Source: Thermoplasmata archaeon
GTDB lineage: Archaea > Thermoplasmatota > Thermoplasmata > UBA10834
Assembly: GCA_041559015.1 (NCBI GenBank)
Contig: JBFFED010000001.1
Coordinates: 2,361 to 66,360 of the forward strand
Length of the DNA: 64,000 nucleotides
Reading direction: 5' to 3'
The notes below the pieces were generated by a model. The model did not search any database. It worked only from the letters and a program-made list of their open reading frames with translations, and was not told the DNA's origin. A program made the translations under genes and the position numbers. Of this stretch, positions 21,442 to 40,669 are shown one piece after another. Numbering within the stretch: the first letter of the stretch is position 1; every line of letters starts with the position of its first letter.

Positions 21442-22047
21442 ATGGCTAAGCCCGAAGGGAAGGAAGAGGACTGGTTCTCCCAGCTGGATGAGGAACTCGA
21501 GAAGAAGACCGTCCAGATCACCGACAACTTCGTAGAGCAGAACTCCAAGAAGGGAGATATCAACAAGATGCTCCTTGAGGACTTTTTCAGGATATGGAGC
21601 AGGTTCAACAAGATCAACGTGCACTTCACGATGGCCCCTGAGGCCTCCACATTCGCCACCTTCGCGGTGTATCCCGAGCAGTGGCAGTTCAAGGCCAACT
21701 TCGACTTCGCGGGCGTCGACAACGCGTCCCTGACGGACAGGACCCAGAACAGGGTCGGGGACTCCGTCAAGATCTGGTACTACAACGTCGACAGCCAAAC
21801 GCACTTCCGGATGATCTTCGAGTTCTGCGAGGGCGAGCACTACTATAAGTACGCCGGCTGGAAGAGGATCTTCTCACAGTACGTCCTCCTGGACGTGCCA
21901 GTGATGAAGTTCGACGAGAAGAAGTTTCACGAAGCGCTTGCCGACGTCGTCAAGACCTGGTACGAGAGCCACCTGAGGCGCGACAGGGACATCATCCTGA
22001 AGCACATCAGGGAGAAGTACGAGAAGGCCGAGACATTCACCCAATGA
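21442..22047 (+). CDS. Hypothetical protein (aromatic-rich, no recognised domain)
   Basis: Clean ORF with ATG start. AT-rich TATA-like box (cttatatt) about 35 nt upstream. Coding-like composition. Confidence 0.55.
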   Translation: MAKPEGKEEDWFSQLDEELEKKTVQITDNFVEQNSKKGDINKMLLEDFFRIWSRFNKINVHFTMAPEASTFATFAVYPEQWQFKANFDFAGVDNASLTDRTQNRVGDSVKIWYYNVDSQTHFRMIFEFCEGEHYYKYAGWKRIFSQYVLLDVPVMKFDEKKFHEALADVVKTWYESHLRRDRDIILKHIREKYEKAETFTQ

Positions 22048-23326
22048 CGTGTTTCGGACACTTCTGCGTCCCGGGTGCCGAGAAGTAGTATTCCATCAGG
22101 CACTCCACCCATCTTGACCCGTCCACCAGGTCGAGTCCGATATCGTGGTAGACGAACTGCATCGCCCATTTCCACGATTCTCCGTTGTACGAGGCTAGGC
22201 TGGGCGGGAAGTTGATGTTGAGCCCGCTCGGCACGCCCATGAACCTGTAGCTGCTCCCGTTGTTGAGCAACGCGGCCTCGAAGGCCGCCTGGAACTCCGC
22301 GATGGCGATGTCCAGCGTCGGGTCTATCCCGATCAGGCCCTCGAAGAGCGAGTACGCGTCAGGGAGGTATTCCCAGCCGCCTATGTTCGCCCACATGCCA
22401 TTGAGCGCCAGGTCCCGGACTGCCATTATCGTATCCGCGTTGTCGGCCACCAACGGTTCGAGCGCCTCGGTCATACGTATGAACGCCGCCCCGAACTCGT
22501 CCATTAGCGACATGTCGAATGCGGAGAACGCCACGAAGTCCTTGTCGTACGGGTTGATGTGCTCGTAGAGGGTCTTCGAGCTGTAGTACTCCATGTACAT
22601 GTCGACCATGTCGTGCGCGAGTTCTTCCGGAGACATCTCGGGCTCCGCCACGAGCGCCTCGACAATCATCTGGTATGGCAGGCCGTCATAGGGCACCACC
22701 AGTTGCGAGGCCGCGAACCAGCCAACGGTATCCCGGAGCTCGTACGCGATCTCCACCGCAGCAACACTGCACGCGTCGAGGGCGAGCAGATCCACGCCGA
22801 CGCCGTCGTTCGCGTCCCTGGCATCCCTGATTGCCTGGGCCATGTCGTCTATGAGCATGATCCCTCCGCCGTCCGTGTCGTCCAGGCACACGCCGCGCCA
22901 CGAGTATCCGTGGTCCTGTATGACCAGCAGAGTCTTCTCCGCAGGGTAGTTCTTGAGGCCGTAGTCAATGAACCTCTTGAGCGTCGCCGGGTCGGATGAG
23001 TTCAGCTCCTCCCAGGTCTGCACCGTGAAACACTCGCCGTCGTGTATGTCGTAGACCCATGTGCCGTCCTCCGAAAGGATGTCCACATAGGCGACCAGGT
23101 TCACATCGTCGTCGGATGTGAGCGCTGCCTTCCAGGTCTTGATCGCGAACTCTGTGCAGAACTCGAGGTTATTGTCCGCGTCCCAGTACATGAGCAATGT
23201 CCATTCCTTGACCGGTTCCTCTGTGACCGGTTTGTCCTCGGCGAGCGCAACGGCCGCGCTCGGCAAGGAGAACAACAAGACCACGGTCGCGCATAGCAGA
23301 AGCTCGCCAAATCCAAGACCCTTCAT
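22037..23326 (-). CDS. Secreted clostripain-like cysteine peptidase (MEROPS C11 family)
   Basis: Signal peptide (MKGLGFGELLLCATVVLLFSLPSAAVALA). …MYWDADNNLE…LLVIQDHGYSW…DLLALDACSVAA… gives the His/Cys dyad context of C11 peptidases. Confidence 0.8.
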   Translation of the reverse strand: MKGLGFGELLLCATVVLLFSLPSAAVALAEDKPVTEEPVKEWTLLMYWDADNNLEFCTEFAIKTWKAALTSDDDVNLVAYVDILSEDGTWVYDIHDGECFTVQTWEELNSSDPATLKRFIDYGLKNYPAEKTLLVIQDHGYSWRGVCLDDTDGGGIMLIDDMAQAIRDARDANDGVGVDLLALDACSVAAVEIAYELRDTVGWFAASQLVVPYDGLPYQMIVEALVAEPEMSPEELAHDMVDMYMEYYSSKTLYEHINPYDKDFVAFSAFDMSLMDEFGAAFIRMTEALEPLVADNADTIMAVRDLALNGMWANIGGWEYLPDAYSLFEGLIGIDPTLDIAIAEFQAAFEAALLNNGSSYRFMGVPSGLNINFPPSLASYNGESWKWAMQFVYHDIGLDLVDGSRWVECLMEYYFSAPGTQKCPKHVIG

Positions 23327-23490
23327 ACTGATCCCCCAAGGCTGATACTGAGGCACCATGACGGCTCCGCGCTATATTAAGTCCGTGATTTCGATGGGGT
23401 AGTCAGTACGCAGAAACGTACGTCGGAGGCATGCTGCGGACCGGGCCTTCCGGAGGACGGCGAAGCAGGGGAGAAGAGACGACGCGAGAC

Positions 23491-24114
23491 TCAGGCCCTC
23501 GCCAGCTTGACCAGCCGACGAGTGAGCGCCCCGCCCATGACCGATATGTCCTCCGTCGGGAGCACCTTGCCCGTGTTCGCGTCGAAGAGGATGTTGGCCG
23601 CCGCAGGGACCTCCTCGTCCCCAAGCCAGAGCACGACGACCACGGGCGTCCTCGGGAAGAAGTCCACCTTGAATCCGACAGACCCCACATCTACAGGCTC
23701 GCCCCTCATGGCCTCCCCGATCCCCTTCAATAGGGCCGGCTTTTCACCGAACTCCTTGACGATGACATCCATCGTGCGGGCCTTGAACGCGGGGTAGTAG
23801 ATCGCCCCGCCCTCGAAATCGCGGAAGGTCACCAGCCTGTTGGCCAGCTGGGCCCTGTCTGCGCCTTCGAGATAGTGAAGCACGAGTATCTGCAGGTGCG
23901 GCGGGACCTCCTGACCGCCGGGGCCGAGGTATGCCATGGTCTTGGCCCCGAGGTCGATAGCGCAGTCCTTGTCCATGATCCTCAACACAAGGTTCTTCGT
24001 GCCGGGGACCACGGACAGGTCGAGTGTCTCAGACAGGTGCTTGGAGCTCAGGTATGATGCCTTCTCCCATGCGCCCCTGAGGGGCTCGAGGTTGGCCGGC
24101 TTCTTCAGGTCCAA
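23491..24114 (-). CDS. DUF3786-like protein, co-transcribed downstream of acsE
   Basis: About 207 aa. Sits 16 nt after the acsE stop. Size and cluster context match DUF3786 proteins seen in CODH/ACS and corrinoid gene clusters. TTG start per the track. Confidence 0.5.
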   Translation of the reverse strand: MDLKKPANLEPLRGAWEKASYLSSKHLSETLDLSVVPGTKNLVLRIMDKDCAIDLGAKTMAYLGPGGQEVPPHLQILVLHYLEGADRAQLANRLVTFRDFEGGAIYYPAFKARTMDVIVKEFGEKPALLKGIGEAMRGEPVDVGSVGFKVDFFPRTPVVVVLWLGDEEVPAAANILFDANTGKVLPTEDISVMGGALTRRLVKLARA

Positions 24115-24130
24115 TCGGCTCTCCTCCTGG

Positions 24131-24901
24131 TCACGCCCTGAGGAACGAGTGGGCGTAGAGCTTCTGGTTCAGGAGCACCTCGGATGCCTTGACGACCTTC
24201 ATCAGCTCGACATCGTTCGGGTCGACTATCGCCGCGTCGAGGCCGCGCCCCAGCAGCATGGCGAGGTAGGTCCTGTTCAGCAGGCTGCGCTCCTCGGCCC
24301 CGCTCGAAACGTTGCTCAGGCCGACTATCGTCTTCGGGGGAGGCGTGTTGAGAGTTCTGAACGCTGTCAGGGCCTCGCCCAGGACCGGGCACTGCGCCTG
24401 CGCGGCCGATATCGGCAGGACCACCGGGTCGAGGTACACCTTCTCCGGGGAGACGCCCTTGTCCATGGCGGTCGCGAGGAGCGTCATGGCTATCTCCGTC
24501 CTCCCCTCGACCGAGTTCGGGATGCCCTTCTCGTCGATCGTGAGGCAGACGATATCTGCGTTGTGCTCCGCGGCCAGCGGGAAGAACTTCTCCATGCGCT
24601 TCTGCTCAGCGGTCGTGGAGTTTATCATCGGGTCCTTCTTGCAGAGCGCGAGTCCGGCCTGTTGGACCTTCAGCCCTGGCGAGTCGATGCACAGGCGCAC
24701 ATCGGCAATGTCCTGGACCGTCTTAACCAGCCAGGCCATGGCATCCGGCCCGTCGTCCCTGCCTGGACCGGTGTTGATGTCCAGCACTCCCGCGCCGCCC
24801 TTGATCTGCTCCAAGGCCAGGTCCTGGACGAACTTGGCGTCCCTGGCATCGATGGCCTTCGAAACCTGTGGAAACTGACCGTTTATCCTCTCCCCCACCA
24901 C
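24131..24901 (-). CDS. acsE: Methyltetrahydrofolate:corrinoid/iron-sulfur protein methyltransferase (AcsE; pterin-binding DHPS-like barrel)
   Basis: MVGERINGQF…GAGVLDINTG…DAMAWLVKTVQ…DVRLCIDSP… parallels Moorella AcsE (LIGEKING…YLDVNAG…MEWLVRVVQ…DVPLCIDSP). 256 aa. Confidence 0.85.
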   Translation of the reverse strand: MVGERINGQFPQVSKAIDARDAKFVQDLALEQIKGGAGVLDINTGPGRDDGPDAMAWLVKTVQDIADVRLCIDSPGLKVQQAGLALCKKDPMINSTTAEQKRMEKFFPLAAEHNADIVCLTIDEKGIPNSVEGRTEIAMTLLATAMDKGVSPEKVYLDPVVLPISAAQAQCPVLGEALTAFRTLNTPPPKTIVGLSNVSSGAEERSLLNRTYLAMLLGRGLDAAIVDPNDVELMKVVKASEVLLNQKLYAHSFLRA

Positions 24902-25046
24902 TATCGTGTACTTACCCCCCTGGGTGAGAGAGGAGTACGACCTTCATCGCATATCAATTGCTCGCCCGTGCCTACCCTTGGCAGGGGCCGCCCGTCTGCG
25001 CAACAGTTATTAGCCACGCATCCCGTTCACACGGAATTGGTTCTCG

Positions 25047-26948
25047 ATGAGAGGGGGATCTGCTAGGAGGAGCCACAAAATAGTATTCGTGGAGGACCGC
25101 AAGGAGGTCGTGCTCGAGGAGGGCAGGACCGTCCTCGAGGCCTGTCAGGCTGCGGGCATACCCATAGACTCCGTGTGCGGCGGCCGAGGTAAGTGCGGCA
25201 GGTGCAAGGTCAGGGTAACCGGGCACTTCTCCGCGGACCCGAGCCCACTGCTCTCGGAGGCAGAACGGCGCGAGGGGATTGTCCTCGCGTGCCTCGCGAG
25301 GGGTCAGGGGCACCTCAAGGTGCATGTGCTCCCCCGCTCCCGGCTGACGAAACATCAGATACTCACGACCTCGGCCGAGGAGCTGCCAGACCCCATCGCG
25401 CCATGGTGCTGGAAGGAGTTCATCGAGCTCCCCCCGGCGACGCTCTCGGACAACATCGCGGACCTGGAGAGGTTGGCAAGGGCGATGGGCGGAAGGCAGC
25501 TGTCTGTCCCCCTGGAGACCCTCAGGGAGCTCCCGGGGGCGCTCAGGGAGGGCGGATGGAAGGTCACCGTCACGATGTCCGACCTCGGGCGCGGCCCGGA
25601 GGTGGTCAGGGTGGAGCCAGGGGACACTCGCGCTAGGCTTCTCGGGATTGCGGTGGACGTCGGCACGACCACCATAGTCGTCGACCTCGTCGACCTCCTC
25701 ACCGGGAAAGTGCTGGGGACCGCATCAGACTATAACAGGCAGGTCTCCAGAGGGGAGGACGTCATCGCTCGCATGATGCACAGCGAGGAAACGGGCGTGG
25801 AAGATCTCACCGCGCTGGCGAGGGAAACCGTCAACTCGTGCATCGAGTCCCTCCTAGCCGACGAGTCCAGGAGGGCCGGCAAGGCAGTCTCCGCCCAGGA
25901 CATCGTCTCGGCCTCGGTCGCGGGCAACACCGTGATGACACACTTCTTCGCTTGCCTGTCGACCGGGCACGTGCGGCTGGAACCCTACGTTCCAGTGGTG
26001 CACAGGATGCCGGAGTTGAGCGGCGCGGACCTCGGGATGCTCATGAACCACTCGGGGAAGGTCCTGCTGTTCCCTTCCCGAGCCGGGTACGTCGGCGGCG
26101 ATGTCGTGGCGGACGTGCTCGCGAGCGGCATGCACAGGTCGGGCAGGCTCTCGCTCCTGATCGATGTAGGCACGAACGGAGAGGTGGTGCTCGGCACGAA
26201 GGACTGGATCATCACGTGCTCGTGCTCTGCCGGCCCTGCGTTCGAGGGGGCCGAGGTGTCCTGCGGCATGAGGGCCATGGAGGGCGCGATCGACCGCATA
26301 AGGATAAACGATGACCTGTCGACGACATACCACGTGATAGGAGGAGGGCCTCCCCTGGGAATCTGCGGCTCCGGCCTGATAGACCTCCTCTCCGAGATGT
26401 ACACGCACGGGGTCATCGACCGCAAGGCCAGGATACAGGAGCTCGGAGGTGGCAGGACGGTGCCCTCGGAGTCAGGCCTCGCATTCGTCGTCGAGAGGAA
26501 GGAGGAGCTGGGGAACGGAGCGCCGTCGGACATGACGATAACCGATGCCGACCTCCAGAACCTGCTAAGGACGAAGGCGGCGATATACGGTGCTTGCGCG
26601 GTCCTGCTGCGTAAGACCGGGGAGTCGCTCGATGGCATCCACAGGGTGTTCATAGCTGGCGGGTTCGGATACCACCTGGACATCGAGCGCGCGATATCCA
26701 TCGGGATGTTCCCCGACCTGCCCCGGAGGAAGTACACGTTCATAGGCAACGGCGCCCTGGGCGGCGCGAGGCTCGGGCTGTTGTCCAGGAAACGCAGGAA
26801 GGAGGCCGTGGACATCTTCGAGAAGATGACCTACCTGGAGCTGAGCGTCGACAACGAATTCTACAACGAGTTCTCCTCCTCGCTCTTCATACCGCACACA
26901 GACCTGAGCCAGTTCCCCAGCGTGGGCAAGTCGGGGGAGGATGCGTGA
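25047..26948 (+). CDS. Reductive activator of corrinoid Fe-S protein (RACo-like: N-terminal 2Fe-2S ferredoxin plus ASKHA ATPase domain)
   Basis: Plant-type ferredoxin Cys pattern (CGGRGKCGRCKV…LAC). About 500-aa ASKHA/DUF4445-like region with nucleotide-binding Gly loops (…IDVGTNGEVV…, …GICGSG…). Stop overlaps the cooC GTG start. Confidence 0.85.
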   Translation: MRGGSARRSHKIVFVEDRKEVVLEEGRTVLEACQAAGIPIDSVCGGRGKCGRCKVRVTGHFSADPSPLLSEAERREGIVLACLARGQGHLKVHVLPRSRLTKHQILTTSAEELPDPIAPWCWKEFIELPPATLSDNIADLERLARAMGGRQLSVPLETLRELPGALREGGWKVTVTMSDLGRGPEVVRVEPGDTRARLLGIAVDVGTTTIVVDLVDLLTGKVLGTASDYNRQVSRGEDVIARMMHSEETGVEDLTALARETVNSCIESLLADESRRAGKAVSAQDIVSASVAGNTVMTHFFACLSTGHVRLEPYVPVVHRMPELSGADLGMLMNHSGKVLLFPSRAGYVGGDVVADVLASGMHRSGRLSLLIDVGTNGEVVLGTKDWIITCSCSAGPAFEGAEVSCGMRAMEGAIDRIRINDDLSTTYHVIGGGPPLGICGSGLIDLLSEMYTHGVIDRKARIQELGGGRTVPSESGLAFVVERKEELGNGAPSDMTITDADLQNLLRTKAAIYGACAVLLRKTGESLDGIHRVFIAGGFGYHLDIERAISIGMFPDLPRRKYTFIGNGALGGARLGLLSRKRRKEAVDIFEKMTYLELSVDNEFYNEFSSSLFIPHTDLSQFPSVGKSGEDA

Positions 26949-27703
26949 CATTCACTTTCGCTGTGACCGGCAAGGGAGGGGTGGGCAAGACCACCTTCGC
27001 AGCGCTTGCGATCAGGCACATACACGAGGCGACGAAGGAGGTCGTGCTGGCGGTCGACGCCGACCCCAACGCGAACCTCGGGGCGAAGCTGGGGACCGAG
27101 CCCGCGAAAACCTTGGGCGGCATCCGGGAGGACATGCTCGCCAGGGGTGAGGACGAGCCTCCGGCGGGGGTCTCGAAGCAGGAGCATCTGGACTACCAGA
27201 TACGCCTGGCCGTCAAGGAGGGGACAGGCTTCGACCTCCTGACCATGGGGAGGCAGGAGGGGCCGGGGTGCTACTGCTATGTCAACAACATGCTCCGGAA
27301 CATCGTCGACTCCCTCTCGGACAGGTACAAGTACGTGGTCATAGACAACGAAGCGGGCATGGAGCACCTCAGCAGGAGGACCACGAAGGCCTCGGACGCG
27401 ATGTTCGTCCTGTGTGACAGGAGCAGGGGCTCCTTGGCCGCCGCGCAGAGGATATCCCAGCTGGCGGACGAGATGAAGATCCAGATATCGAGGAAAGCGC
27501 TGGTCTTCAACGGGCTCGACCCCGGCGCGGAAGGGCCGCCGTCACAGGCGGTTGAGAGATTCCATGCGGTCTATGGGGTGCGCAGATCGGGGAGGATACT
27601 CTCGAGCGCGGAGGAGACGGAGTCCCTCATGGGGATACCCAGGACCGACCCCGCCTTCACTGACATCGCTAGGGCCGTGGACGCCGAGAGGCTCCGGCGG
27701 TGA
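26945..27703 (+). CDS. cooC: CODH nickel-insertion accessory ATPase CooC (MinD/ParA-type)
   Basis: Deviant Walker A VTGKGGVGKTT. CooC-specific CxC metal motif GPGCYCYVNN. About 250 aa. Confidence 0.85.
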   Translation: MTFTFAVTGKGGVGKTTFAALAIRHIHEATKEVVLAVDADPNANLGAKLGTEPAKTLGGIREDMLARGEDEPPAGVSKQEHLDYQIRLAVKEGTGFDLLTMGRQEGPGCYCYVNNMLRNIVDSLSDRYKYVVIDNEAGMEHLSRRTTKASDAMFVLCDRSRGSLAAAQRISQLADEMKIQISRKALVFNGLDPGAEGPPSQAVERFHAVYGVRRSGRILSSAEETESLMGIPRTDPAFTDIARAVDAERLRR

Positions 27704-27706
27704 AAC

Positions 27707-29041
27707 TCACCCGGAGAGCGTCTTAAGCATCTTCGGCAGGCCCGAGGACTCCCTCGGGCCCACGACCACCTTCATGTCTGTCAGCTCGTTCAGCTTCCCG
27801 CTCATCCTGGTGACCATGCCCGGGATGACTATCTCGTTCCTGGTGCACTTCTCCTTGACCTTCTCCGCCTCTATGAGCGTCGCGACCGACTCCGGCGTCA
27901 GCTTGCCCGCGGCGAACGCGGTCATGACCGACTGGCCGTCGGTGTCGACCACCAGGAGCCAGACGGGGAGCTTGCTCTTCTCTATGTCCGCGCGCACAGT
28001 GAAGTACGTCAGCGAGAAGTTGGTGGTGAACAGCAGGGGCGAGCTGCCTGTGGGCTCGCCCACCGTGTACAGGCCCGCCTTGACCTGTATCGGCACCTGC
28101 GGGTCCGTGAATATGTTCTGCCTCAGCGCCATGAGCGGGTAGACGAACTCCGGGGGCATCTCGTCCATGAGCACCACGGATGAGTACTTCATGACCCCGA
28201 GGACAGCCTTCATCCTGTCCCCTTCGGAAGTGCCGAGAACCGATATGGTCGGATACCCGAGGGGCCTGAACTTCTTCTTCACCGCCGCACGCCTGATGAT
28301 AGTCATGTTCTCCAGCATCTGCCCCGCGGACGACCCCTTGGGCTCCAGCACCAGGTCCGAAACGCCAGCCTTCTTCGCCTTGTCCGCGAGTTCGGCGAGC
28401 TTGCCCAGGTCATCGGCCCCTCCGACCACGAGCGGGAACCCGCACGCCTTCGCCGCCTGGACCATCGCATCGAAGTTGTCCGGGGTCGCCCTGTAGAGCA
28501 GCGGCCTCGCCTCGGCGCACGCAGAAGCGGCCTCTGACATCAGCTTCGGGTCCTCCGTCATGAGCACTACCGGGACGGTCATGGTCGAGGCGTACTTCGC
28601 GGCCTCGAGGAAGTCATCCGGGGTGCCGCTCGAGTGCCTGACGGCCACGGAGTCTATCCTAATCATCTGCCCGACGCGCTCGTAGTAGGTGGCCTTCGCG
28701 TCCTGCATCTTCGCCTTCATCTTCTCGAGGCCCTCGGAGTCGTCGGCTATCACGCCGAGCACAGTCGGGTGGTAGAACGTCTTGTCGTGCCTGAACAGCT
28801 GCGTCTCGTCCCCGATCTTGGCGGGCGAGCCGCTCCAGCCGAATGAGACGAGCCTCACCGGAGGCGCCCCGCTCTCCTCCAGGACGGTCTTGGCCTCGGG
28901 GCTGACGTACGGGCACGCCTCCAGGGCCACCTTCTGGTTTGCCAGCTGCATGGCGAACGCCAGGCAGGTGGGGAACTTGCACTCCCCGCAGTTCTTCTTT
29001 GGGAGGAGCTTGTAAATCTCCATCGCGGTCGGCACGCTCAT
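27707..29041 (-). CDS. acsC: Corrinoid iron-sulfur protein large subunit (AcsC/CdhE, acetyl-CoA decarbonylase/synthase gamma)
   Basis: N-terminal 4Fe-4S motif …KKNCGECKFPTCLAFAMQLA… followed by TIM-barrel and corrinoid-binding regions. Internal ATG (MSVPTAMEIYKLLP) forms an ATGA overlap with the acsD stop. Confidence 0.9.
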   Translation of the reverse strand: MSVPTAMEIYKLLPKKNCGECKFPTCLAFAMQLANQKVALEACPYVSPEAKTVLEESGAPPVRLVSFGWSGSPAKIGDETQLFRHDKTFYHPTVLGVIADDSEGLEKMKAKMQDAKATYYERVGQMIRIDSVAVRHSSGTPDDFLEAAKYASTMTVPVVLMTEDPKLMSEAASACAEARPLLYRATPDNFDAMVQAAKACGFPLVVGGADDLGKLAELADKAKKAGVSDLVLEPKGSSAGQMLENMTIIRRAAVKKKFRPLGYPTISVLGTSEGDRMKAVLGVMKYSSVVLMDEMPPEFVYPLMALRQNIFTDPQVPIQVKAGLYTVGEPTGSSPLLFTTNFSLTYFTVRADIEKSKLPVWLLVVDTDGQSVMTAFAAGKLTPESVATLIEAEKVKEKCTRNEIVIPGMVTRMSGKLNELTDMKVVVGPRESSGLPKMLKTLSG

Positions 29042-29991
29042 CCACCTCCCGCGAGGTCCTTGGCGGCCTGCCGGAAGAGCGTGACCGATTCGGGATGTCT
29101 CATGATGACGATATCCGCCCCCGCGACGACAGCGGAGTAGGCCGTGATGGCCTCCCAGTAGACGCCCCTCTCGTGGCGCGGGCCCTTCTTCGGGTCCTCC
29201 TCCATCACGTCCGGGACACCCCAGGCGCACGACGCGTCACATATGATCGGCATCTGCAGGACAGGGTCCCCTGAGAGGGCGCCCTGCCTGAGCCGCTCGA
29301 TGACTGAGTAGGAGTACTCGAGCCCCATGCCCAGCGCGGCCATCAGCGGGTCGATGATGATATTCTCAGGCTTCACGCCGAAATCGAGCAGCAGGATGTT
29401 CATCTGCTTCGCCAGGTTGATGTCCAGGTTGGAGAACGCGACCATCCCGTGCCCGTTGGCCATCGACGCGGCCGCGAGGGACTTGAAAGCCTTCTCCTCC
29501 GCGAGCCCGATGAAGAGCCGCTCGCCCTTGCCGGCGTTCGATACCGCCTCCATCAGCTTCGCGTCCTTCTCCTCGGAACCACACCCGTAGACGAGCATGG
29601 GCAGCGACACCGACTTCAGGACCTCCTTGAAGAGCGACTCGCACTCCTCGACCGGCCTGTTCTCTTCCTCGGGGTTGGCGGATGCGAGCCTCAGTAGGAG
29701 GGCGTCCGCGCCCCACTCCTTCTCGCACTTCCTGGCCCACTCCACTGGTTCCTTCGCGATCGAGCCCATGGACCCGAGCAGCGCCTCCGGGACGAGCCTG
29801 GGCGTATCCACGACGTCCATGACCACCGCGGGCGGGCGCGAGACATGGCTCTCGAACCTGTTGAACGGCAGCCCGTCCGAGCCCCCTATCACGATGCTCG
29901 AGCTCCTCGTCCCGCCCTGCTCCTTGGTCGCGCCTATGACGACCTCCCGTATCTTGCCCGCAAATCGTTCCTTCGGCACATCGAAATCCAT
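29038..29991 (-). CDS. acsD: Corrinoid iron-sulfur protein small subunit (AcsD/CdhD, delta subunit)
   Basis: 317 aa TIM-barrel protein matching CdhD/AcsD patterns. Sits directly between acsAB and acsC. Confidence 0.85.
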   Translation of the reverse strand: MDFDVPKERFAGKIREVVIGATKEQGGTRSSSIVIGGSDGLPFNRFESHVSRPPAVVMDVVDTPRLVPEALLGSMGSIAKEPVEWARKCEKEWGADALLLRLASANPEEENRPVEECESLFKEVLKSVSLPMLVYGCGSEEKDAKLMEAVSNAGKGERLFIGLAEEKAFKSLAAASMANGHGMVAFSNLDINLAKQMNILLLDFGVKPENIIIDPLMAALGMGLEYSYSVIERLRQGALSGDPVLQMPIICDASCAWGVPDVMEEDPKKGPRHERGVYWEAITAYSAVVAGADIVIMRHPESVTLFRQAAKDLAGGG

Positions 29992-30009
29992 AGCTGTTCC
30001 CCCAGTACC

Positions 30010-33000
30010 TCACTTGATCATAGGTTCCATCGACAAGGCCGGGTGCTGCACCTTCGTCATCCACTCTATGAGCTCCTCCGGCGTCTTGGCGACCGTCTCG
30101 TCCGCGATCTTGTCCACGAAATCGGGCACGCCTACCTCCTCCGAGCGCCTCTTGAGCTCCTCCTTCATGGCCTCCTTGAGGTCCTTCGGCATCCAGACGA
30201 TCCTGAGGAAGCCCCCGTCCGCGCTGATGAACTTCTTGCTGGTGAGGTACTTCCTGCCGATCCCGATGAACCCGGGGGTCTGTATGCCTCCCCCGACCGA
30301 GCCGGCGAGGGTGGAGAAGGTCATACCCATGGGCGTCATGCCAGGGAACTCCCGGTTCACCACCACGACGCCCTGAAGGTCGGGCGACATCCCCACGATG
30401 CACTCGAAGCAGCCACAGGACGTCATCGGGTCCTCGACCATCGTGTAAGCGCTGAACTTCTGTAGCTTGCCGTGGGTCTTCTCAGCGACCGCTTCGTTGA
30501 CGCCCGTCCACTGGCCCTTGACCTCGTCTACTGTCTGCTTCTTGGGCACGGGGCTATTGGGCCCAGTCGGCGCTATCTGGAACGAGGCCTTCGCGTCGAG
30601 CCAGTTGATGGCGCCGCACAGCCCGAGCCTCTCGGGCGTGACTATGCACACGTGCCCCGGGGCGAAGCTCTGGCACAGGGTGCATGTGTAGAATATGTCC
30701 ACGTTCTCGTCCGTCAGGGTCGCGATCCTCGCGTCCCTCTCCTCGTACGCGGCCTTCGCCTCGTCTACATGCTTCCTCAGCTCGGCCTCGTCCGTGATTA
30801 TGGTGACCTCGACCTTGGAGACTATGGCCCCGAATTCCTGCTTGAGCTTGGTCGCGAGAATCTCCCCGAAGTGCTTCAGCCTCAGACCGCTCTTGAACGC
30901 GGACTTGCTTAGCCTGACCCAGAGCAGGTTCCTCTGGCCGGTGTGCCACCCGCCCTCGGCGAAGTTGATGAATTGGTGGAACCTGCGTTCCAGCACCGGC
31001 TCGAAGTCCGGCTGCATGTTCTTGCCGTAGACATGGACTATGATGCCCAGGTGGGTCGAGCCGCCCTCGGGCATCTCGTCGACGTCCTTGCCTATGAGAG
31101 TAACCTTGCCGTCCGAGACCTCCTCCGGGCCGCGCATCCTCAGTAGCTCGAACGCGAGCGTCTTGGACGGGCCGCCGGCCTCGATGTGCATGTCCGGCCT
31201 CCTGATGGTCTCGCCCTCAAACGCAGGGCCGTAAGGAACCGGGAGGTCCATCGCCCCTAGCTTTATCCTGCAGCCCCTGACCTCGATTGCGGTCGCAATC
31301 ATCTCGTCCAAGTTCTTCTGGACGACGTACTTGTCGGGGATGGGCTCGACGTCCTGGTCGGTGATTGTCGGCGAGCCGTTGAACATGACCGCGAACTCCG
31401 CGGCGACCTTGATGTGGTCGAGCGGTCCCAGCTGGAGCACGAACACCTTGGGCCTCTTGGAGAGGTAGTTGTACAGTCCTTCCCGGTCACCCTTCTGTAT
31501 GCCCCCGAACGAGAGCGCTGCCCTGATGGCGAAGTTCAGGCCGTGGATGGCCTGTGTGAACTCCCCCACTGGATAGAGCATCCTGTCAAGGCCCATCGAG
31601 ATACTCTCGTCCTTGAGCTGCTTGATGATGTCGTAGGTCGCGATTATGAGCATGCCCTTGTTCTGGCAGTCCCTGATCATGGCCGCCAGCTTCTTTGGGT
31701 CGCTTGCGCGCCCGACGAACACGGCCGCCCCAGGTATCGTGTCGTCGACGAAGGCGATCCCCAGCTGCCTCAGTATCCTGTCCGGGACGAACCCGCAGTA
31801 CATCGTCCCCTCGTAGGGTGTCTGTGTCTCGATGTACTTGAGCGCCTCGACTATCTCTGCGGCAATCATGGTCGCCTCGCCAGAGGCGACCGCCGCCTCG
31901 AATGTCGGCTCCTCCCTTATCTTGCCCCTCGCCTCGCCCAGGAGCATCGGCAGGTCCCCCAGTCGGGTGCAGTCCCTTCCCAGCCAGGCGAACAGGCTTG
32001 GGAGCTGGTAGCCGGTCTCCGGGAACTCGATCTTCTGGTCGGGGCCGTACTTCCTCAGCGCCCTGCTCAGGAGCACATCAGCGTAACCCGTCGCGATTAT
32101 CGAGCCCTCGATGGCCATCTTGAAGAGCTTTGCGTTCGTGACCTTCTCCCCGGTCGGGACATAATGCGATGCGCGCTCCACCTCGGGGTCCGTGAGGTCC
32201 AGCCGCCAGCGCCTGTACTCGATTGCGGAGTAGAGCCTCTTGGCGGCCTCGTGCCCGTCCTCCTCGAATATGAAGTACCCGCCGTAGACGTCCCTTGCGG
32301 TGTTCTCGAGCACCTCGGTGACGAGCGTGCTCCCGTAAAGGTAGTTCATCGTGCCGACATGGACCGGGAAGCCCATCGTAACCGCCCATGTGCCGATGGA
32401 GACTGCCTTCTCGTGCATCGCCTCCGGGGCGATGGCCACGAAGGGTATCTGGTGGATGTCGACACCCATCCGGTTCGCCACCTCGGTCGCGAGGTTAGAA
32501 TAACGGGGGTTGTCCACGCACGAGCCTATGTGCCACACGCACGGGAGGCCCTCCAGCCCCGAGGCATCCGCGAGCTCCGCAAGGAAGGACTGGAGTCCTT
32601 CGCCCGCGAACTCCTTCGCCTTCGCGGGGTCCATGAACCCGCCTTTCGCGAGCTCGATCGCGTTGCACCCGGTGGTGAGGAGGAGCACATCCCTCTTCGC
32701 CAGCTCTCGCGCTATGGTGAGTACGTCGGAGTCCTCCTTCGCGCGGGTGTTCTTGCACCCGGCGAAGAGCGCTAGCCCGCGGATCCTGCCCTTGACTATG
32801 CAGTCTACCAGGAACTGGAACGGGTCCTCACGATTCTTCTTTGAGAACAGCTCCTTGATCTGCTCGACGCTGAACCCGGCCATCACCGCCGCCGGCTTCA
32901 CGTCCGGTAGGCGCCTGATCTTCCCACGGTGCCTGTATGCCTCCGCTGCGAGTATGAGCACGTCGCGCGCTGAGGCCTTGGCCCGCTCTGGCGTGAACTC

Positions 33001-34209
33001 GATATGCGTGTCCCCGGGGAGCCGGGCGATCTCCTCCGTGCTGATGATCCTGGTGTGGGTGCACCTCGCGAGCTGTGAGAGCGACGGCATGAAGCACTGG
33101 TAATCGAGCACCATCGCGTCCAGCAGGCCGCTCAGGAGGACCAGCTCCTGGGAGGTCACGTTCGCGGCCAACGGGACGCCCTTCCTCATGAGGGTCTCGT
33201 TCCCCGTGCAGCACACACCGACTATGTTGAAGCCCTGCGCGCCGGCCTTGGTCGCGATCTCCTTCATCTCCCTCGCCGCGTCGACCATGATGTCGCTCAA
33301 GAGCGGGTTGTGTCCGTGGACCGCTATGTTGATTGACTTCTCGTCGAGCACGCCCAGATTCGCGCGGCTGAGGATCATCTTCGGCGTGCCGAACAGGACG
33401 TCGCTGAGGTCTGAGGATATCTGGGCGCCAGTGTAATCCGCCAAGGAGCACTTGATGCCCCCGAACAGGAGGGGGATCGGGTCGGCGTCGACACCCATGG
33501 CAGTCCGATGAATCACATCTGATATCGCCGTCTCGATGTTGGTCGGCAGGACAGCATGGGTATCCCACAGATGCATCCTTCCGCGCGTCACTCTGCTCTT
33601 GAGGAAGGAGAGCGGCTCGTGCGTGAACCTCGAGTAATCGTCGAGCGCTGCGAGGGATACCGCTTCCGCGAGGGCCATGCCATCCTTATCAGTTTCCTGG
33701 ATGCCCAGCTTCTTCGCCAACGCCTCCAGCCTGACCTCGTCCGTCACTTTGTAGTCCTTGACCTCACCCTTGGACACTGCGTGCAGCACATGGGCTATCT
33801 CCTTGCCGTGGCCGGAGTGCGAGGCAGTGCCCCCGGCGATCATGCGCACCAGATGCCGGGCGACTATCGTGTAGTCCCGCGCGCCGCATATGCCGCTGGT
33901 CGGCTCCTTGCCCATCGGGTTGATTCTGCACGGCCCCTGGAGACATATCTTACAGCACAGCCCGAGGGACCCGAACCTGCACTGAGCGCCCTGGTTGGCC
34001 GCTCTGTCCGGGAGCGTCTCGATTCCAGCTGCGTGCAGGTCGGTGAACATGGTCGTGCACGAATCGTCCCAGAAGTCGCACGACCACTTCGATTTCTTGT
34101 CAGTCCGCTCCTTCTCGCCCGGTGGTCTCTCGTTCTCGCCAGTGGTCACCCAGACAGCACTCCTAGTTCGCAATGGCGCATGTGGCAACCACTGATAGGC
34201 CCGAGCCAT
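30010..34209 (-). CDS. acsAB: Single-polypeptide fusion of Ni-CODH catalytic subunit (CooS/AcsA-type) and full-length bacterial-type acetyl-CoA synthase (AcsB)
   Basis: Continuous 1399-aa ORF. N-terminal half has CooS signatures (QCRFGSLGLCCKICLQGPCRINP, …SHSGHGKE…, …VHGHNP…, …GVCCTGNE…, …VWHIGSCVDN…). From about residue 685 it parallels Moorella AcsB residue-for-residue (…AIRTYGPD…, …GPAFEGE(S/T)IR…, …TCTLCQSFAPGHVCIVTPER…, A-cluster …TSCGCFEC…, …HPALSMEPM). Confidence 0.85.
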   Translation of the reverse strand: MARAYQWLPHAPLRTRSAVWVTTGENERPPGEKERTDKKSKWSCDFWDDSCTTMFTDLHAAGIETLPDRAANQGAQCRFGSLGLCCKICLQGPCRINPMGKEPTSGICGARDYTIVARHLVRMIAGGTASHSGHGKEIAHVLHAVSKGEVKDYKVTDEVRLEALAKKLGIQETDKDGMALAEAVSLAALDDYSRFTHEPLSFLKSRVTRGRMHLWDTHAVLPTNIETAISDVIHRTAMGVDADPIPLLFGGIKCSLADYTGAQISSDLSDVLFGTPKMILSRANLGVLDEKSINIAVHGHNPLLSDIMVDAAREMKEIATKAGAQGFNIVGVCCTGNETLMRKGVPLAANVTSQELVLLSGLLDAMVLDYQCFMPSLSQLARCTHTRIISTEEIARLPGDTHIEFTPERAKASARDVLILAAEAYRHRGKIRRLPDVKPAAVMAGFSVEQIKELFSKKNREDPFQFLVDCIVKGRIRGLALFAGCKNTRAKEDSDVLTIARELAKRDVLLLTTGCNAIELAKGGFMDPAKAKEFAGEGLQSFLAELADASGLEGLPCVWHIGSCVDNPRYSNLATEVANRMGVDIHQIPFVAIAPEAMHEKAVSIGTWAVTMGFPVHVGTMNYLYGSTLVTEVLENTARDVYGGYFIFEEDGHEAAKRLYSAIEYRRWRLDLTDPEVERASHYVPTGEKVTNAKLFKMAIEGSIIATGYADVLLSRALRKYGPDQKIEFPETGYQLPSLFAWLGRDCTRLGDLPMLLGEARGKIREEPTFEAAVASGEATMIAAEIVEALKYIETQTPYEGTMYCGFVPDRILRQLGIAFVDDTIPGAAVFVGRASDPKKLAAMIRDCQNKGMLIIATYDIIKQLKDESISMGLDRMLYPVGEFTQAIHGLNFAIRAALSFGGIQKGDREGLYNYLSKRPKVFVLQLGPLDHIKVAAEFAVMFNGSPTITDQDVEPIPDKYVVQKNLDEMIATAIEVRGCRIKLGAMDLPVPYGPAFEGETIRRPDMHIEAGGPSKTLAFELLRMRGPEEVSDGKVTLIGKDVDEMPEGGSTHLGIIVHVYGKNMQPDFEPVLERRFHQFINFAEGGWHTGQRNLLWVRLSKSAFKSGLRLKHFGEILATKLKQEFGAIVSKVEVTIITDEAELRKHVDEAKAAYEERDARIATLTDENVDIFYTCTLCQSFAPGHVCIVTPERLGLCGAINWLDAKASFQIAPTGPNSPVPKKQTVDEVKGQWTGVNEAVAEKTHGKLQKFSAYTMVEDPMTSCGCFECIVGMSPDLQGVVVVNREFPGMTPMGMTFSTLAGSVGGGIQTPGFIGIGRKYLTSKKFISADGGFLRIVWMPKDLKEAMKEELKRRSEEVGVPDFVDKIADETVAKTPEELIEWMTKVQHPALSMEPMIK

Positions 34210-34537
34210 GAGTATGGGGGTTCCGCGGGTCGTCTAGCAAGCTGTTCGAAAAGCCGTCCACCGGAAACGCACCCCGTCGGAGGGCGGAGGCGCCGGCGGA
34301 GAAGACCGAGTCTCCACAACGCCCCCAAACGCGGTAGCCAAGACAAATGTCCGGATATTCCGTTGGCTCCAGCCCCCCATTCTCAAAGTATCTGGCCAAG
34401 TGTTGGATGTTGCCTCAGCGCTCGGCATTCGACGAATGCATATGATGCTACTAAAACATTGTTGTTTGACGATGTTCGGCCCTTGCCGATTGCAGGGTTG
34501 GCTGGAGCCGAGCCGGACGGGCGGGTTCTGGATGGGG

Positions 34538-35335
34538 CTAGGGCTGCATGTTCCTTGAAATGGCGTTCGAAAGCTGTCGGACGGACTCAATCCACTCATC
34601 GGCCCCTGGCCCAGCGAATGGTGACCCCCCAGCCAGGTCAGCGGAGGCGACGGTCTCCGAGCGCGGGAGCGCGAAGATGAGCTCCAGCCCACGTCCGGCC
34701 AAGCCACGTTTGACCGAGGCCTTCTCGCCTTCGTTCGCAACCCGGTTCGCGACGACCGCGACCTTGCGTACGCCCATCTCCCCCGCCAGCTCGGCTATCC
34801 TGGCGGCGGTCTCACTCGACCGTGAGCCAGGTTCCACTACAACCAGTAGAAGGTCGACGCCCCGGCAGGTCGCCCGGCCGAACTGCTCAAGCCCGGCCTC
34901 CATGTCCACGACCACGTACTCGTCCCGCTCCAGCACCACGTGCTCGAGCAGGCCCCTCAGGAGGGCGTTCTCGGGGCAGAAACAGCCGCTCCCGGCGGCT
35001 TTGATCGTCCCGAGGACGAGGAGCCGCACGCCGTCCGCCCCGACCCTCGAGTATCTCTCTGGGATGTCGTCCACTCTCGGGTTGAGCTTGAAGAACGGGC
35101 CGGTGCTCGTCCCCGGCCTTGCGCCTGTGCGCTCCTCTATAAGGTCCAACTCGGAGGATATCGGCTGGGGTACGTCCCCCGCATGTATCTCGAGCACCGT
35201 CCTCAGGTGGGCGGCGGGGTCGGCGTCCACCGCCAGCACCCTGTTGCCCTGTCTCGCCCACACTCTGGCCAGCGAGCCGGCGACGGTCGTCTTACCCACG
35301 CCGCCCTTGCCCGAGACGGCTACCTTGAGACCCAA
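34538..35335 (-). CDS. acsF: Second CooC-family nickel-insertion ATPase (AcsF-like, ACS maturation)
   Basis: VSGKGGVGKTT deviant Walker A. CxC motif GSGCFCPEN. 265 aa. Paralog of the cooC at 26945. Confidence 0.85.
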   Translation of the reverse strand: MGLKVAVSGKGGVGKTTVAGSLARVWARQGNRVLAVDADPAAHLRTVLEIHAGDVPQPISSELDLIEERTGARPGTSTGPFFKLNPRVDDIPERYSRVGADGVRLLVLGTIKAAGSGCFCPENALLRGLLEHVVLERDEYVVVDMEAGLEQFGRATCRGVDLLLVVVEPGSRSSETAARIAELAGEMGVRKVAVVANRVANEGEKASVKRGLAGRGLELIFALPRSETVASADLAGGSPFAGPGADEWIESVRQLSNAISRNMQP

Positions 35336-35339
35336 ACTA

Positions 35340-35537
35340 TCAGGCCTTCCTGGGCCTGAGGAGTATCTCGTGCCTCACAAGGTTCGCCTCGGCGAGCTCG
35401 ACGTCCTTGACCGTCCGGATATCGCCCAGGGTGTCCACGCAGTTGATGTCGTTCCCTACAACAAGCACCCTCGCTGCCTCTTGCATGATGAGGTGTTTCT
35501 CAGAACCCTTGACTAGGTAGACCGCAGACTCACACAT
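35340..35537 (-). CDS. cooT: CooT-like small nickel-binding CODH accessory protein (about 65 aa)
   Basis: Internal ATG gives MCESAVYLVKGSEKHLIMQEAARVLVVGNDINCVDTLGDIRTV…. Met-Cys start, size and beta-rich pattern match R. rubrum CooT (MCMAKVVLTK…). Sits between the ACT gene and acsF. Confidence 0.5.
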   Translation of the reverse strand: MCESAVYLVKGSEKHLIMQEAARVLVVGNDINCVDTLGDIRTVKDVELAEANLVRHEILLRPRKA

Positions 35538-35579
35538 TGCATATACCCCACGGAGTCCGGTGCTCACGAGCACATGCGG

Positions 35580-35984
35580 TTAGTCGACTGAGCACTCGGC
35601 TATCTGTCCCGCGACCTTCTTGGCCTTCTCGTAATCGTCCACGACGAACACGAACCTCAGCCTGTCGCCCTTCTGCCCAAGAAGGTAGCTCGTCCTCAAC
35701 TGCACCCCGTTGTCGACGAGGTACCTGGCCGCGCGCACCCACTGCCCCGGCCTGTTGAACATGTCTATGACGAGGACCTTCCTCTCGCTGAAGGGCAGGT
35801 CGGCCTTCATGAAGGCCCTCCGGCACTCCTCGTCGCAGCCGGTGAGGAACCTGATGAAATACTTGTCCTCGATCTTCGCGGTGGCAATCGTGTCCAGGTT
35901 TATGTGCTGCTCCGCGAGCAGCGCGACCGTGTCGAGAAGGTCCTTGCTGTCCCCAGATAGCGTCAGTTCGAATTCGGTTGTCAT
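35580..35984 (-). CDS. ACT-domain-containing protein (first gene of the acs operon)
   Basis: Two ACT-like beta-alpha-beta-beta-alpha-beta units (…ELTLSGDSKDLLDTVALLAEQHINLDTIA…, …RLRFVFVVDDYEKAKKVAG…). Confidence 0.55.
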   Translation of the reverse strand: MTTEFELTLSGDSKDLLDTVALLAEQHINLDTIATAKIEDKYFIRFLTGCDEECRRAFMKADLPFSERKVLVIDMFNRPGQWVRAARYLVDNGVQLRTSYLLGQKGDRLRFVFVVDDYEKAKKVAGQIAECSVD

Positions 35985-39849: not shown

Positions 39850-40023
39850 GTCTTGAGACTGCACTAGCATCACCTTCGTCCACTGATGGGCCTGCAAGGG
39901 TGTTCTGGCCCGTCGGAAGGTGTATACCCCTAACGTCTAGAAATGCTTGGCGCTGAAAACGACGAGAACTCTAAAAGGGGAAGTAAGTGGTTTGAGCTCG
40001 ATCGTCTGAGAGCACCTGCGCGC

Positions 40024-40554: not shown

Positions 40555-40564
40555 GAATGTGCCA

Positions 40565-40595
40565 GGATAATAAATGAATCTTTCTATTAATTTCG
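40565..40595 (-). promoter_or_regulatory. Putative TATA-box region for zinc-ribbon paralog 2
   Basis: On the minus strand, aaATTAATAGaaagattcaTTTATTATcc forms a locally AT-rich island about 15-40 nt upstream of the chosen ATG. Confidence 0.3.
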
Positions 40596-40669
40596 ACATA
40601 TCCATGCTGGCGGTGCGAATCAAGGCGATAGCGATGCCTTGGGACGGAGCGCTTGCCAGGCGAGCGGAG

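Follow-up and report, generated by a model that had tools for sequence, protein, structure and literature searches.

A ten-gene CODH/ACS cluster with a single-chain, AcsB-type enzyme in a Thermoplasmata archaeon

Gene content of the CODH/ACS cluster

The window analysed here, a 64,000-nucleotide stretch of a Thermoplasmata contig, carries a ten-gene CODH/ACS cluster at positions 23491-35984, with genes on both strands. Approximately 66 ORFs in the window were scanned with family models. All ten genes that the initial annotation had placed in this interval were recovered there or nearly so, each with a strong match to its own family. The features are as follows.

23491..24114, minus strand: DUF3786 protein, 207 aa (PF12654, E 2.3e-42); last gene of the acsE-DUF3786 pair
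24131..24901, minus strand: AcsE, methyl-tetrahydrofolate:corrinoid/Fe-S protein methyltransferase, 256 aa (NF005719, 281.6 bits, cut-off 259)
24902..25046, no strand: divergent intergenic region between acsE and the RACo gene, defined by gene orientation
25047..26948, plus strand: RACo/AcsV-type reductive activator of corrinoid protein, 633 aa (2Fe-2S domain and ASKHA ATPase)
26945..27703, plus strand: CooC-family Ni-insertion ATPase, 252 aa (P-loop GKGGVGKT, CXC motif GCYC); occupies the place of acsF, immediately after RACo
27707..29041, minus strand: AcsC, corrinoid iron-sulfur protein large subunit, 444 aa (NF003195, 516.6 bits, cut-off 306)
29038..29991, minus strand: AcsD, corrinoid iron-sulfur protein small subunit, 317 aa (NF003376, 347.8 bits, cut-off 280)
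30010..34149, minus strand: fused CODH-ACS, a single gene in one stop-free ORF; likely start GTG 34149, 1379 aa
30013..32133, minus strand: ACS module of the fused gene, AcsB type with domains A1-A3, residues 693-1399 (NF040764, 965 bits, cut-off 800)
32134..32172, minus strand: linker from the CODH C-terminus to the ACS N-terminus, residues ~680-692; short, with a variable consensus
32173..34068, minus strand: CODH module of the fused gene, CooS-type Ni,Fe-CODH, residues ~48-679 (TIGR01702, 651 bits, cut-off 478)
34150..34537, minus strand: leader upstream of acsAB, ~390 nt, with an AT-rich patch at ~34430-34470
34538..35335, minus strand: second CooC-family Ni-insertion ATPase, 265 aa (P-loop GKGGVGKT, motif GCFC); occupies the place of cooC, ahead of the CODH gene
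35340..35537, minus strand: CooT-type small Ni-binding protein, 65 aa (PF10133, 46.8 bits, cut-off 27)
35580..35984, minus strand: stand-alone tandem-ACT protein, 134 aa (ACT_8, 25.1 bits); first gene of the ACT-cooT-cooC set

AcsE also matched Pterin_bind (E 2e-20) and is 72-91% identical to its counterparts in related Thermoplasmata loci, and the placement of DUF3786 after acsE recurs in the bacterial operons L079 and L034. RACo matched all four of the Fer2, RACo_linker, Raco_middle and RACo_C_ter domains. Strict “exception” NCBIfam models trained on acetogens were not reached by AcsE (164 vs. 370), RACo (AcsV; 569 vs. 800) or AcsD (243 vs. 430 bits); broader family models were passed by AcsE and RACo. 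AcsC contains the FeS and CdhD domains. Its ORF is open to 29230, and the start was set at 29041 because of the family match and an ATGA start/stop overlap with acsD. AcsD is of the short form and of bacterial length. To judge from gene orientation only, the intergenic region between acsE and RACo presumably holds promoters.

Both ATPases combine a MinD/ParA-class P-loop with a CXC motif and are encoded beside CODH/ACS genes, as in the CooC/AcsF family. The product of 26945-27703 gave ParA/MinD-class matches, and that of 34538-35335 gave CbiA/ParA-class matches. In bacterial operon L079, which is ordered cooC-acsA-acsB-acsC-RACo-cooC-acsD-acsE-DUF3786 with a 27-nt gap between acsA and acsB, the former is best matched by the cooC copy after RACo and the latter by the one preceding acsA. 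By position against the bacterial operon, the cooC and acsF labels in the initial annotation were probably swapped, and gene position is likewise what suggests which ATPase would serve CODH and which ACS.

The CooT ORF reaches 35573, and PF10133 was aligned to ORF residues 13-72. Translation probably starts with the Met-Cys at 35537, where the match begins with MCESAVYLV; in CooT, the N-terminal Cys2 is the nickel ligand. Of the loci compared, 27 related archaeal ones contain a CooT gene and the bacterial ones lack it. The predicted structure of the tandem-ACT protein (pLDDT 89) resembled BT0572 (2F06) and aspartokinase regulatory subunits with a TM score of 0.80; the fold search returned generic tandem-ACT regulators, none of them tied to nickel, and the homologue search returned proteins of the same lineage (57-93% identity) and no distant relatives. 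The ACT-CooT-CooC set upstream of acsAB is lineage-specific.

The fused CODH-ACS gene

In its longest form, the fused ORF begins with ATG at 34209 and runs uninterrupted through 30010-34209 to encode 1399 aa. The GTG at 34149 was favoured as the acsAB start, in agreement with homologue P0001 in a start comparison. The ~390-nt leader gave no match in an Rfam scan, and an internal promoter may lie within it.

When compared with solved structures, the CODH module scored 622-627 bits against C. hydrogenoformans CODH and 600 bits against Moorella AcsA, and its predicted structure superimposed on CODH-II with a TM score of 0.95. Metal ligands were mapped by the literature numbering of CODH-II, giving C77, C85, C86, C89, C94, C108, H131, H298/300, C333/334, C372, C485, C515, C564 and K601. 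The D-, B- and C-cluster ligands, together with His131 and Lys601, were invariant across 40 homologues. The module fits the CooS type, which lacks the E/F-cluster insert: the cdhA model gave 59.9 bits against a cut-off of 781, and no Fer4 match was found in the CODH half. CdhB had no match among the ~66 ORFs scanned. The initial annotation had noted the absence of archaeal CdhA and CdhB features, and these searches bear it out. A C-x6-C motif near the N-terminus (KWSCDFWDDSC) was considered as an additional metal site and rejected; it is missing from homologue P0037.

The ACS module matched all three of PF18537, PF03598 and PF19436, and the N-terminal A1 domain is present. It aligned with C. 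hydrogenoformans ACS at 824 bits and 51% identity, whereas archaeal CdhC reached only 353 bits and covered only the C-terminal part. The A-cluster motifs were found as C-x2-C-x8-C-x9-C at residue 1176 and C-G-C at residue 1265, and the A-cluster ligands, too, do not vary across the 40 homologues. With no ferredoxin-like insert, no CdhB and an A1 domain, the system departs from the archaeal ACDS (CdhABCDE) on each count.

In alignments with PDB entries, the CODH part stops at residue 679 and the ACS part restarts at residues 686-693. A model of CODH plus A1 (pTM 0.88) showed the intervening linker as ordered (pLDDT 81-95). A single ORF of 1379-1399 aa differs in subunit organisation from the separate-subunit (alpha2-beta2) enzyme, while domain content is the same. 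Because CODH and ACS form one polypeptide with a short linker, the fused enzyme would be expected to be a homodimer of ~150-kDa chains and not an alpha2-beta2 tetramer.

Flanks, relatives and descent of the cluster

The cluster lies in archaeal surroundings: the window also encodes PurP (DUF1246/DUF1297), a protein with an RPA-like OB fold and one with an MCM-C wHTH, and gene order here follows that of Thermoplasmata MAGs. PurP and RPA had been listed as archaeal flanking genes in the initial annotation and were recovered; Nep1 and RpoK, listed with them, were not found among the scanned ORFs. A conserved 201-aa ORF at 21442-22047 had no Pfam match. The Rfam scan of the window detected two tRNAs only (52955 and 58094), and no methyl-branch genes were found within the window. 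GC3 is 0.862 in the cluster and 0.834-0.863 in adjacent housekeeping genes, and the RSCU correlation between the two sets is 0.98. Further along, at ~39.5 kb, GC3 falls from ~0.84 to 0.75. Chimerism was rejected as the source of this step, since gene order shared with relatives continues across it.

Full-length fused homologues (1358-1388 aa) form more than 118 protein clusters at 56-98% identity. Where names are given, they are Thermoplasmata, Thermoplasmatota or Methanomassiliicoccales, with the exception of two labelled Bathyarchaeia and Halobacteriota; these labels imply either that inheritance has not been purely vertical across archaea or that bins are mislabelled. Thermoplasmata MAGs provide the closest genomes, UBA10834 and RBG_19FT_COMBO_56_21 among them. 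In ~20 Thermoplasmata MAG loci, the cluster and both of its flanks are collinear with the window, and AcsAB is 79-93% identical. The RBG_13_57_23 locus (L023) encodes a protein 80% identical to the fused CODH-ACS described here.

In a neighbor-joining (NJ) tree, all fused homologues and two unfused Methanomassiliicoccales-related ones formed one clade with 100% bootstrap support. With AcsB attached to the CODH C-terminus in one ORF, the enzyme groups with the fused, single-chain proteins of Thermoplasmata. Nearest to this clade are unfused Methanomassiliicoccales AcsB proteins, followed by Carboxydothermus-type ACS; taxon labels recovered for the nearest tree representatives were Methanomassiliicoccaceae, Methanomethylophilaceae, Omnitrophota and Chloroflexota. 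CODH and ACS genes are truly split in loci L030 and L032, with clean stop/start junctions, and one nested lineage seems to have reverted from the fused to the split state.

Taken together, these data argue that this is very probably a vertically inherited carbonyl-branch (CODH/ACS) cluster of the Thermoplasmata order UBA10834 (Ca. Gimiplasmatales) or a close relative, encoding an AcsB-type, tetrahydrofolate-linked enzyme. The initial annotation had offered two options, an inter-domain acquisition or a lineage using the bacterial architecture, and had named congruent composition, together with placement in an archaeal clade, as evidence against the former. The fused CODH-AcsB falls inside such a clade, and GC3 and codon usage of the cluster are congruent with the flanks. 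The second option stands, and no inter-domain acquisition is visible at the locus.

The deep origin of the cluster is a separate matter, on which vertical inheritance within the order is compatible with an ancient transfer. A complete bacterial acs operon may have entered an ancestor of Methanomassiliicoccales, UBA10834 and related Thermoplasmata, followed by vertical descent, acsA-acsB fusion and occasional passage among archaea; we consider the case for and against this scenario to be evenly balanced. Bacterial operons share the gene content, with cooC placed after RACo and DUF3786 after acsE, and AcsE belongs to the tetrahydrofolate type. Identity of the ACS half is about as high to Carboxydothermus ACS (51%) as to unfused Methanomassiliicoccaceae AcsB (50%), and CdhC-like sequences, once added, join the tree far from the archaeal AcsB clade. 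However, NJ support at the base is just 46% for the archaeal clade with its Methanomassiliicoccales neighbours and 58% when Carboxydothermus/P0126 are added, midpoint rooting sets the archaeal group apart from all remaining sequences, and a root between bacterial and archaeal AcsB has been proposed as possible (PMC13370988). CdhC-like short sequences, when used to root the ACS tree, were not monophyletic.

Alternatively, the AcsB-type enzyme could be ancestral in Archaea, with the Thermoplasmata cluster a relic and not an import. This would agree with one of the two roots offered in PMC13370988, with the reported occurrence of AcsB in several archaeal phyla (PMC13370988) and with the NJ midpoint root, which splits the archaeal group from all other sequences, although an NJ tree rooted at its midpoint carries little weight. 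Ancestry in Archaea nevertheless seems unlikely given the patchy distribution in Thermoplasmatota, where the pathway is missing from SG8-5 (10.1101/2020.03.09.984617) and from Yaplasmales clades B and C (PMC9239135), and given a tetrahydrofolate dependence and operon layout that resemble those of bacteria. More speculative, and in our view distinctly improbable, is a scheme in which the single-chain CODH-ACS would be ancestral in a large archaeal AcsB-type clade sister to the bacterial enzymes and not descended from them, with three-domain AcsB equally old in both domains, fission occurring later in one Methanomassiliicoccales-related lineage, and ACT-CooT-CooC serving the fused enzyme as a dedicated sensing and nickel-loading module.

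That this archaeon recently gained a bacterial acs island by horizontal transfer, the main suggestion of the initial annotation, is very hard to sustain. The architecture is one usually termed bacterial, without CdhB or a CdhA-type insert, yet the closest bacterial identity is only 43-51%, and the edges of the cluster showed no integrase, repeat or tRNA-flanked boundary. Any acquisition was not recent, because GC3 and RSCU match those of adjacent housekeeping genes, the same neighbours surround the cluster in ~20 related genomes and the archaeal clade has 100% bootstrap support.

Least credible of all is an artefact, whether a chimeric or misbinned contig or a fusion created by frameshift or assembly error: the 39.5-kb GC3 step and the presence of some members of unfused length (702-737 aa) in 90%-identity clusters of fused proteins might hint at one, but synteny with many independent assemblies spans both cluster edges and the step, fused ORFs come from NCBI, JGI, ENA and Logan assemblies that include closed MAG chromosomes, and the split versions in L030 and L032 are cleanly delimited. 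The chimeric contig that the initial annotation had allowed for is excluded by synteny with Thermoplasmata MAG loci.

Function, significance and comparison with known systems

From family membership, we infer the following catalytic activity. The CooS-type module would reduce CO2 to CO at the Ni,Fe C-cluster, and CO would reach the Ni-Ni-[4Fe4S] A-cluster in the ACS module by way of the A1 domain. AcsE would transfer the methyl group of methyl-tetrahydrofolate to the cobalt of AcsCD, which would in turn deliver it to the A-cluster, where CoA would join to yield acetyl-CoA; flux in the reverse direction is also conceivable. RACo would return inactive Co(II) to the reduced state, and nickel would be loaded by both CooC-type ATPases and CooT.

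The occurrence of AcsB in Thermoplasmatota has already been published (PMC13370988), as has ACS/CODH in UBA10834 (10.1101/2020.03.09.984617), and the cluster is normal equipment of a known archaeal order. Methyl-branch genes of relatives are known from published MAG analyses, in which genus COMBO-56-21 of Ca. Gimiplasmatales has acsA-E plus Fhs, FolD and MTHFR (PMC11264602). A literature search for the CODH-ACS fusion returned a supplementary-table entry only, with no discussion found in the main texts consulted: in Suppl. Table 1 of Inoue et al. 2019, RBG_13_57_23 is listed as a clade-F Ni-CODH “fused with ACDS beta subunit” (PMC6344411). The linker, the ACT-CooT-CooC set and the nested split forms are not discussed in the literature found on Ca. 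Gimiplasmatales and Thermoplasmata CODH/ACS.

The locus adds one more well-assembled case of non-methanogenic Thermoplasmata relatives of Methanomassiliicoccales with an AcsB-type, tetrahydrofolate-linked Wood-Ljungdahl carbonyl branch. It does not demonstrate a new inter-domain transfer, nor does it settle the ACS root, for which both positions were still discussed in a 2026 preprint (PMC13370988). The practical value lies in a natural single-chain CODH-ACS that is widespread in environmental archaea. With its fixed stoichiometry, the fused enzyme could be convenient for CO channelling studies or engineering, and fused and split pairs inside one clade provide a natural experiment.

The methanogen CdhABCDE system shares the same overall chemistry, homologous corrinoid subunits and a homologous A2-A3 region (353 bits to 9c0s_E). 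It differs in several respects: the Thermoplasmata cluster has no CdhB, its CODH lacks the E/F-cluster ferredoxin insert, the A1 domain missing from CdhC is present, the long N-terminal region of CdhD is missing from AcsD, and methyl donation falls to a tetrahydrofolate-type enzyme.

With the bacterial acs operons of Moorella thermoacetica and Carboxydothermus hydrogenoformans, the cluster shares a CooS-type CODH, three-domain AcsB, AcsC, AcsD, AcsE, RACo, two CooC-type ATPases and DUF3786. All metal ligands are common, the ACS half shares 51% identity with C. hydrogenoformans ACS, and the pairings of RACo with cooC, of acsE with DUF3786 and of cooC with the downstream CODH gene are kept. In contrast, two subunits in bacteria correspond to one polypeptide here, one operon corresponds to three predicted transcription units on both strands, CooT and the tandem-ACT protein are additional, and the host is archaeal.

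The closest correspondence is with the CODH/ACS of Ca. Gimiplasmatales (UBA10834, COMBO-56-21), in which gene order and flanks are the same and AcsAB is 79-93% identical. The published acsA-E set and tetrahydrofolate methyl branch fit the locus with no substantive difference, and the window represents another member of this group.

Gene content of the acs cluster

Coding frames in the window (G+C ~60%) are clearly marked by a GC3 of 0.8-0.9, and all sizeable frames between 23491 and 35984 could be assigned using Pfam and NCBIfam.

Genes of the acs cluster (window coordinates, strand, Pfam/NCBIfam assignment)
23491-24114, minus: DUF3786 protein
24131-24901, minus: AcsE
25047-26948, plus: four-domain RACo/AcsV activator
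26945-27703, plus: CooC-type ATPase following RACo, with P-loop and Cys-x-Cys motif
27707-29041, minus: AcsC
29038-29991, minus: AcsD
30010-34209, minus: acsAB, one 1399-aa ORF; CooS-type CODH (TIGR01702, 651 bits), then full three-domain AcsB (NF040764, 965 bits)
34538-35335, minus: second CooC-type ATPase, upstream of acsAB, with P-loop and Cys-x-Cys motif
35340-35573, minus: CooT
35580-35984, minus: tandem-ACT protein

For AcsC, a start at 29041 is the best choice and creates an ATGA overlap with acsD. Translation of acsAB probably begins at position 34149 with a GTG, matching the start in a 98%-identical homologue, and that of CooT probably at a Met-Cys at 35537. No ferredoxin-type insert was found in the CODH half, which scored 60 bits against the archaeal cdhA model (cut-off 781), and the CdhB family had no matches among the ORFs scanned in the window with Pfam and NCBIfam. 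The initial annotation, which described an acs gene set lacking cdhB and CdhA ferredoxin features, was therefore correct on this point.

An unusually long non-coding gap (~390 nt, 34150-34537) separates cooC from acsAB and contains an AT-rich patch near 34430-34470. It had no Rfam family matches, and may be an internal promoter or leader.

A single-chain CODH-ACS

In alignments with solved structures, CODH stops at residue 679 and ACS starts at 686-693, so the two enzymes are joined by a short linker, the sequence of which is poorly conserved. An AlphaFold2 model of residues 21-1010 (CODH and the A1 domain) gave a pTM of 0.88 with linker pLDDT values of 81-95, and its CODH module superimposed on CODH-II with a TM of 0.95. 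The model would fit an A1 domain docked on CODH in a fixed fashion, as in two-subunit enzymes. An assembly artefact was rejected as the source of the fusion, as a protein search recovered full-length fused homologues (1358-1388 aa) in >118 clusters at 90% identity from NCBI, JGI, ENA and Logan assemblies, closed MAG chromosomes included.

Ligands were mapped with a constant offset of 38 to the literature residue numbering of Carboxydothermus hydrogenoformans CODH-II. The CODH half retains every Cys and His ligand of the D, B and C clusters together with the catalytic His and Lys, and the ACS half carries the A-cluster motifs C-x2-C-x8-C-x9-C and C-G-C; these positions are invariant across the aligned fused homologues (n=40). 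The ACS half scored 824 bits (51% identity) against C. hydrogenoformans ACS and 805 bits against Moorella ACS, whereas its match to archaeal CdhC (9c0s_E) reached 353 bits and was limited to the C-terminal domains. The CODH half scored 622-627 bits against C. hydrogenoformans CODH and 600 bits against Moorella AcsA. The cluster is real, complete and apparently functional.

Several AcsB variants were encountered among the homologues. An ACS ORF of just ~555-596 aa at L033 (CP070767, 10010-11677) begins within the A1 domain and is followed by acsD and acsC, with no adjacent CODH half; truncation or degradation may account for this form. Other AcsB lineages (P0130, P0133, P0136, P0131) include single-chain AcsB-AcsD proteins of ~1210-1225 aa and fusions of a pyridine-nucleotide-disulphide oxidoreductase domain to the AcsB N-terminus. 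An intein with a LAGLIDADG endonuclease lies near the A-cluster motif, in the ACS C-terminal region, of P0080 and P0096 (both of the fused family), P0123 and P0132 (intein-bearing proteins, ~1155-1896 aa).

Residence in the host genome

The nearest genomic loci are all from Thermoplasmata or Thermoplasmatota MAGs, with identities of 93% and 92% (L019, L021), 85% (L028), and 81-82% to UBA10834 and RBG_19FT_COMBO_56_21; UBA10834 is now the name of the order (Ca. Gimiplasmatales) and COMBO_56_21 that of one of its genera. Of the archaeal flanking genes initially annotated, PurP and an RPA-like OB-fold protein were found, and Nep1 and RpoK were not, among the ORFs scanned; the flanks further encode an MCM-C winged-helix protein, Memo and ribosomal protein S2.

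The inter-domain acquisition raised by the initial annotation was not borne out as a recent event. GC3 is 0.862 in the cluster, 0.834 in the left flank and 0.863 in the right, and RSCU values of cluster and flanks correlate at 0.98. When every window protein was compared with the fetched loci by tblastn, the same gene order was recovered in ~20 independent Thermoplasmata loci: upstream genes, DUF3786-acsE, RACo-cooC, acsC-acsD-acsAB and cooC-cooT-ACT, then methyltransferase, RPA-like, MCM-C, DUF2085, Memo, S2 and aminotransferase. This collinearity also rules out a chimeric contig. GC3 does drop at ~39.5 kb, from ~0.84-0.86 (1-39400) to ~0.75 (39500-64000; Mann-Whitney p = 4e-7), but the relatives' gene order continues across the step, which is thus a property of the genome and not a join.

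Neighbour-joining trees (200 bootstraps) were built from 710 columns of the ACS domain, using fused homologues, named bacterial sequences and sequences retrieved when 1.8 billion cluster representatives were searched exhaustively. One clade, recovered in 100% of replicates, took in all fused proteins and also the L030 and L032 sequences, which come from split genes. Its weakly supported neighbours were unfused AcsB of Methanomassiliicoccaceae (P0125) and Methanomethylophilaceae (P0139), followed outward by C. hydrogenoformans ACS and P0126. AcsB thus lies in an archaeal clade with congruent composition, the outcome that the initial annotation had given as a refutation, and this contradicts any recent acquisition. 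Composition, synteny and phylogeny agree that the cluster genes are resident.

L030 and L032 are Methanomassiliicoccales-related MAG loci whose ACS is 68% identical to that of the window. Their CODH and ACS genes (L030 9908-14076; L032 9914-14099) are separate: acsA (671-676 aa) either shares an ATGA with acsB (718-744 aa) or ends 5 nt before it. The L030/L032 ACS nests within the fused clade, and the fused proteins formed a group of their own in 0/200 replicates. A single fusion, later split in the L030/L032 lineage, would be the simplest reading; repeated fusions are a less simple alternative. The fused P0103 and P0109 (57-58% identical), labelled Bathyarchaeia and Halobacteriota, pair within the otherwise Thermoplasmata clade, reflecting either inter-archaeal transfer or mislabelled bins.

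Other genes of the window were noted in passing. A 201-aa ORF (21442-22047) with no Pfam match is 72-92% identical among related Thermoplasmata and a constant neighbour of the acs cluster. Two clostripain-family (C11) peptidase genes are present (22037-23359 and 51498-52655), a copy adjoining the cluster in several relatives. Three zinc-ribbon proteins lie in a row at 39484-41272, and a 659-aa protein whose sole recognised domain is B12-binding is encoded 8.5 kb upstream of the corrinoid-dependent cluster (13007-14986).

Comparison with bacterial operons and known lineages

The bacterial operon encoding P0126 (L079) has the order cooC-acsA-acsB-acsC-RACo-cooC-acsD-acsE-DUF3786, with 27 nt between acsA and acsB. 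The ATPase at 26945-27703 best matches its post-RACo copy and that at 34538-35335 the copy upstream of acsA. The post-RACo position is that of acsF in the Moorella operon, so the cooC and acsF labels first given to these genes, judged by position relative to L079, are probably reversed. ACT, CooT and CooC occur together in 27 related loci, a set absent from the bacterial loci compared. Homologues of the ACT protein were found in this lineage only; it is modelled as a stand-alone tandem-ACT protein (pLDDT 89; TM 0.80 to BT0572, 2F06), a fold for which a role as small-ligand sensor would be the generic expectation.

Every cluster protein except CooT and ACT has counterparts in such bacterial operons at 30-48% identity. 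Because the cluster thus resembles a bacterial acs operon in rearranged form, an old transfer into the ancestor of this Thermoplasmata group would be favored. AcsB has been reported in Bathyarchaeota, Methanomicrobia, Methanomassiliicoccales, Thermoplasmatota, Halobacteria and Heimdallarchaeia by a 2026 preprint that keeps two possible roots, one making archaeal AcsB ancestral and the other implying lateral transfer (PMC13370988). Our tree is unrooted, most of its representatives carry no taxon names, and the CdhC-like sequences analysed were not monophyletic, so both deep origins stay candidates.

ACS/CODH and Wood-Ljungdahl genes have been described in UBA10834 (10.1101/2020.03.09.984617), acsA-E with Fhs, FolD and MTHFR in genus COMBO-56-21, for which methylotrophic acetogenesis was proposed (PMC11264602), CooS with CdhDE/AcsBE in Yaplasmales clade A (PMC9239135), and ACS/CODH with a tetrahydrofolate pathway in one Methanomassiliicoccales MAG (PMC6147122). 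The trait is already documented, and the CODH-ACS fusion is listed by Inoue et al. 2019 (Supplementary Table 1), including that of RBG_13_57_23 (L023), which is 80% identical to the window protein. The initial annotation's alternative, a lineage using the bacterial architecture, fits: the cluster belongs to the usual gene complement of an archaeal order that is already known, and is itself on record.
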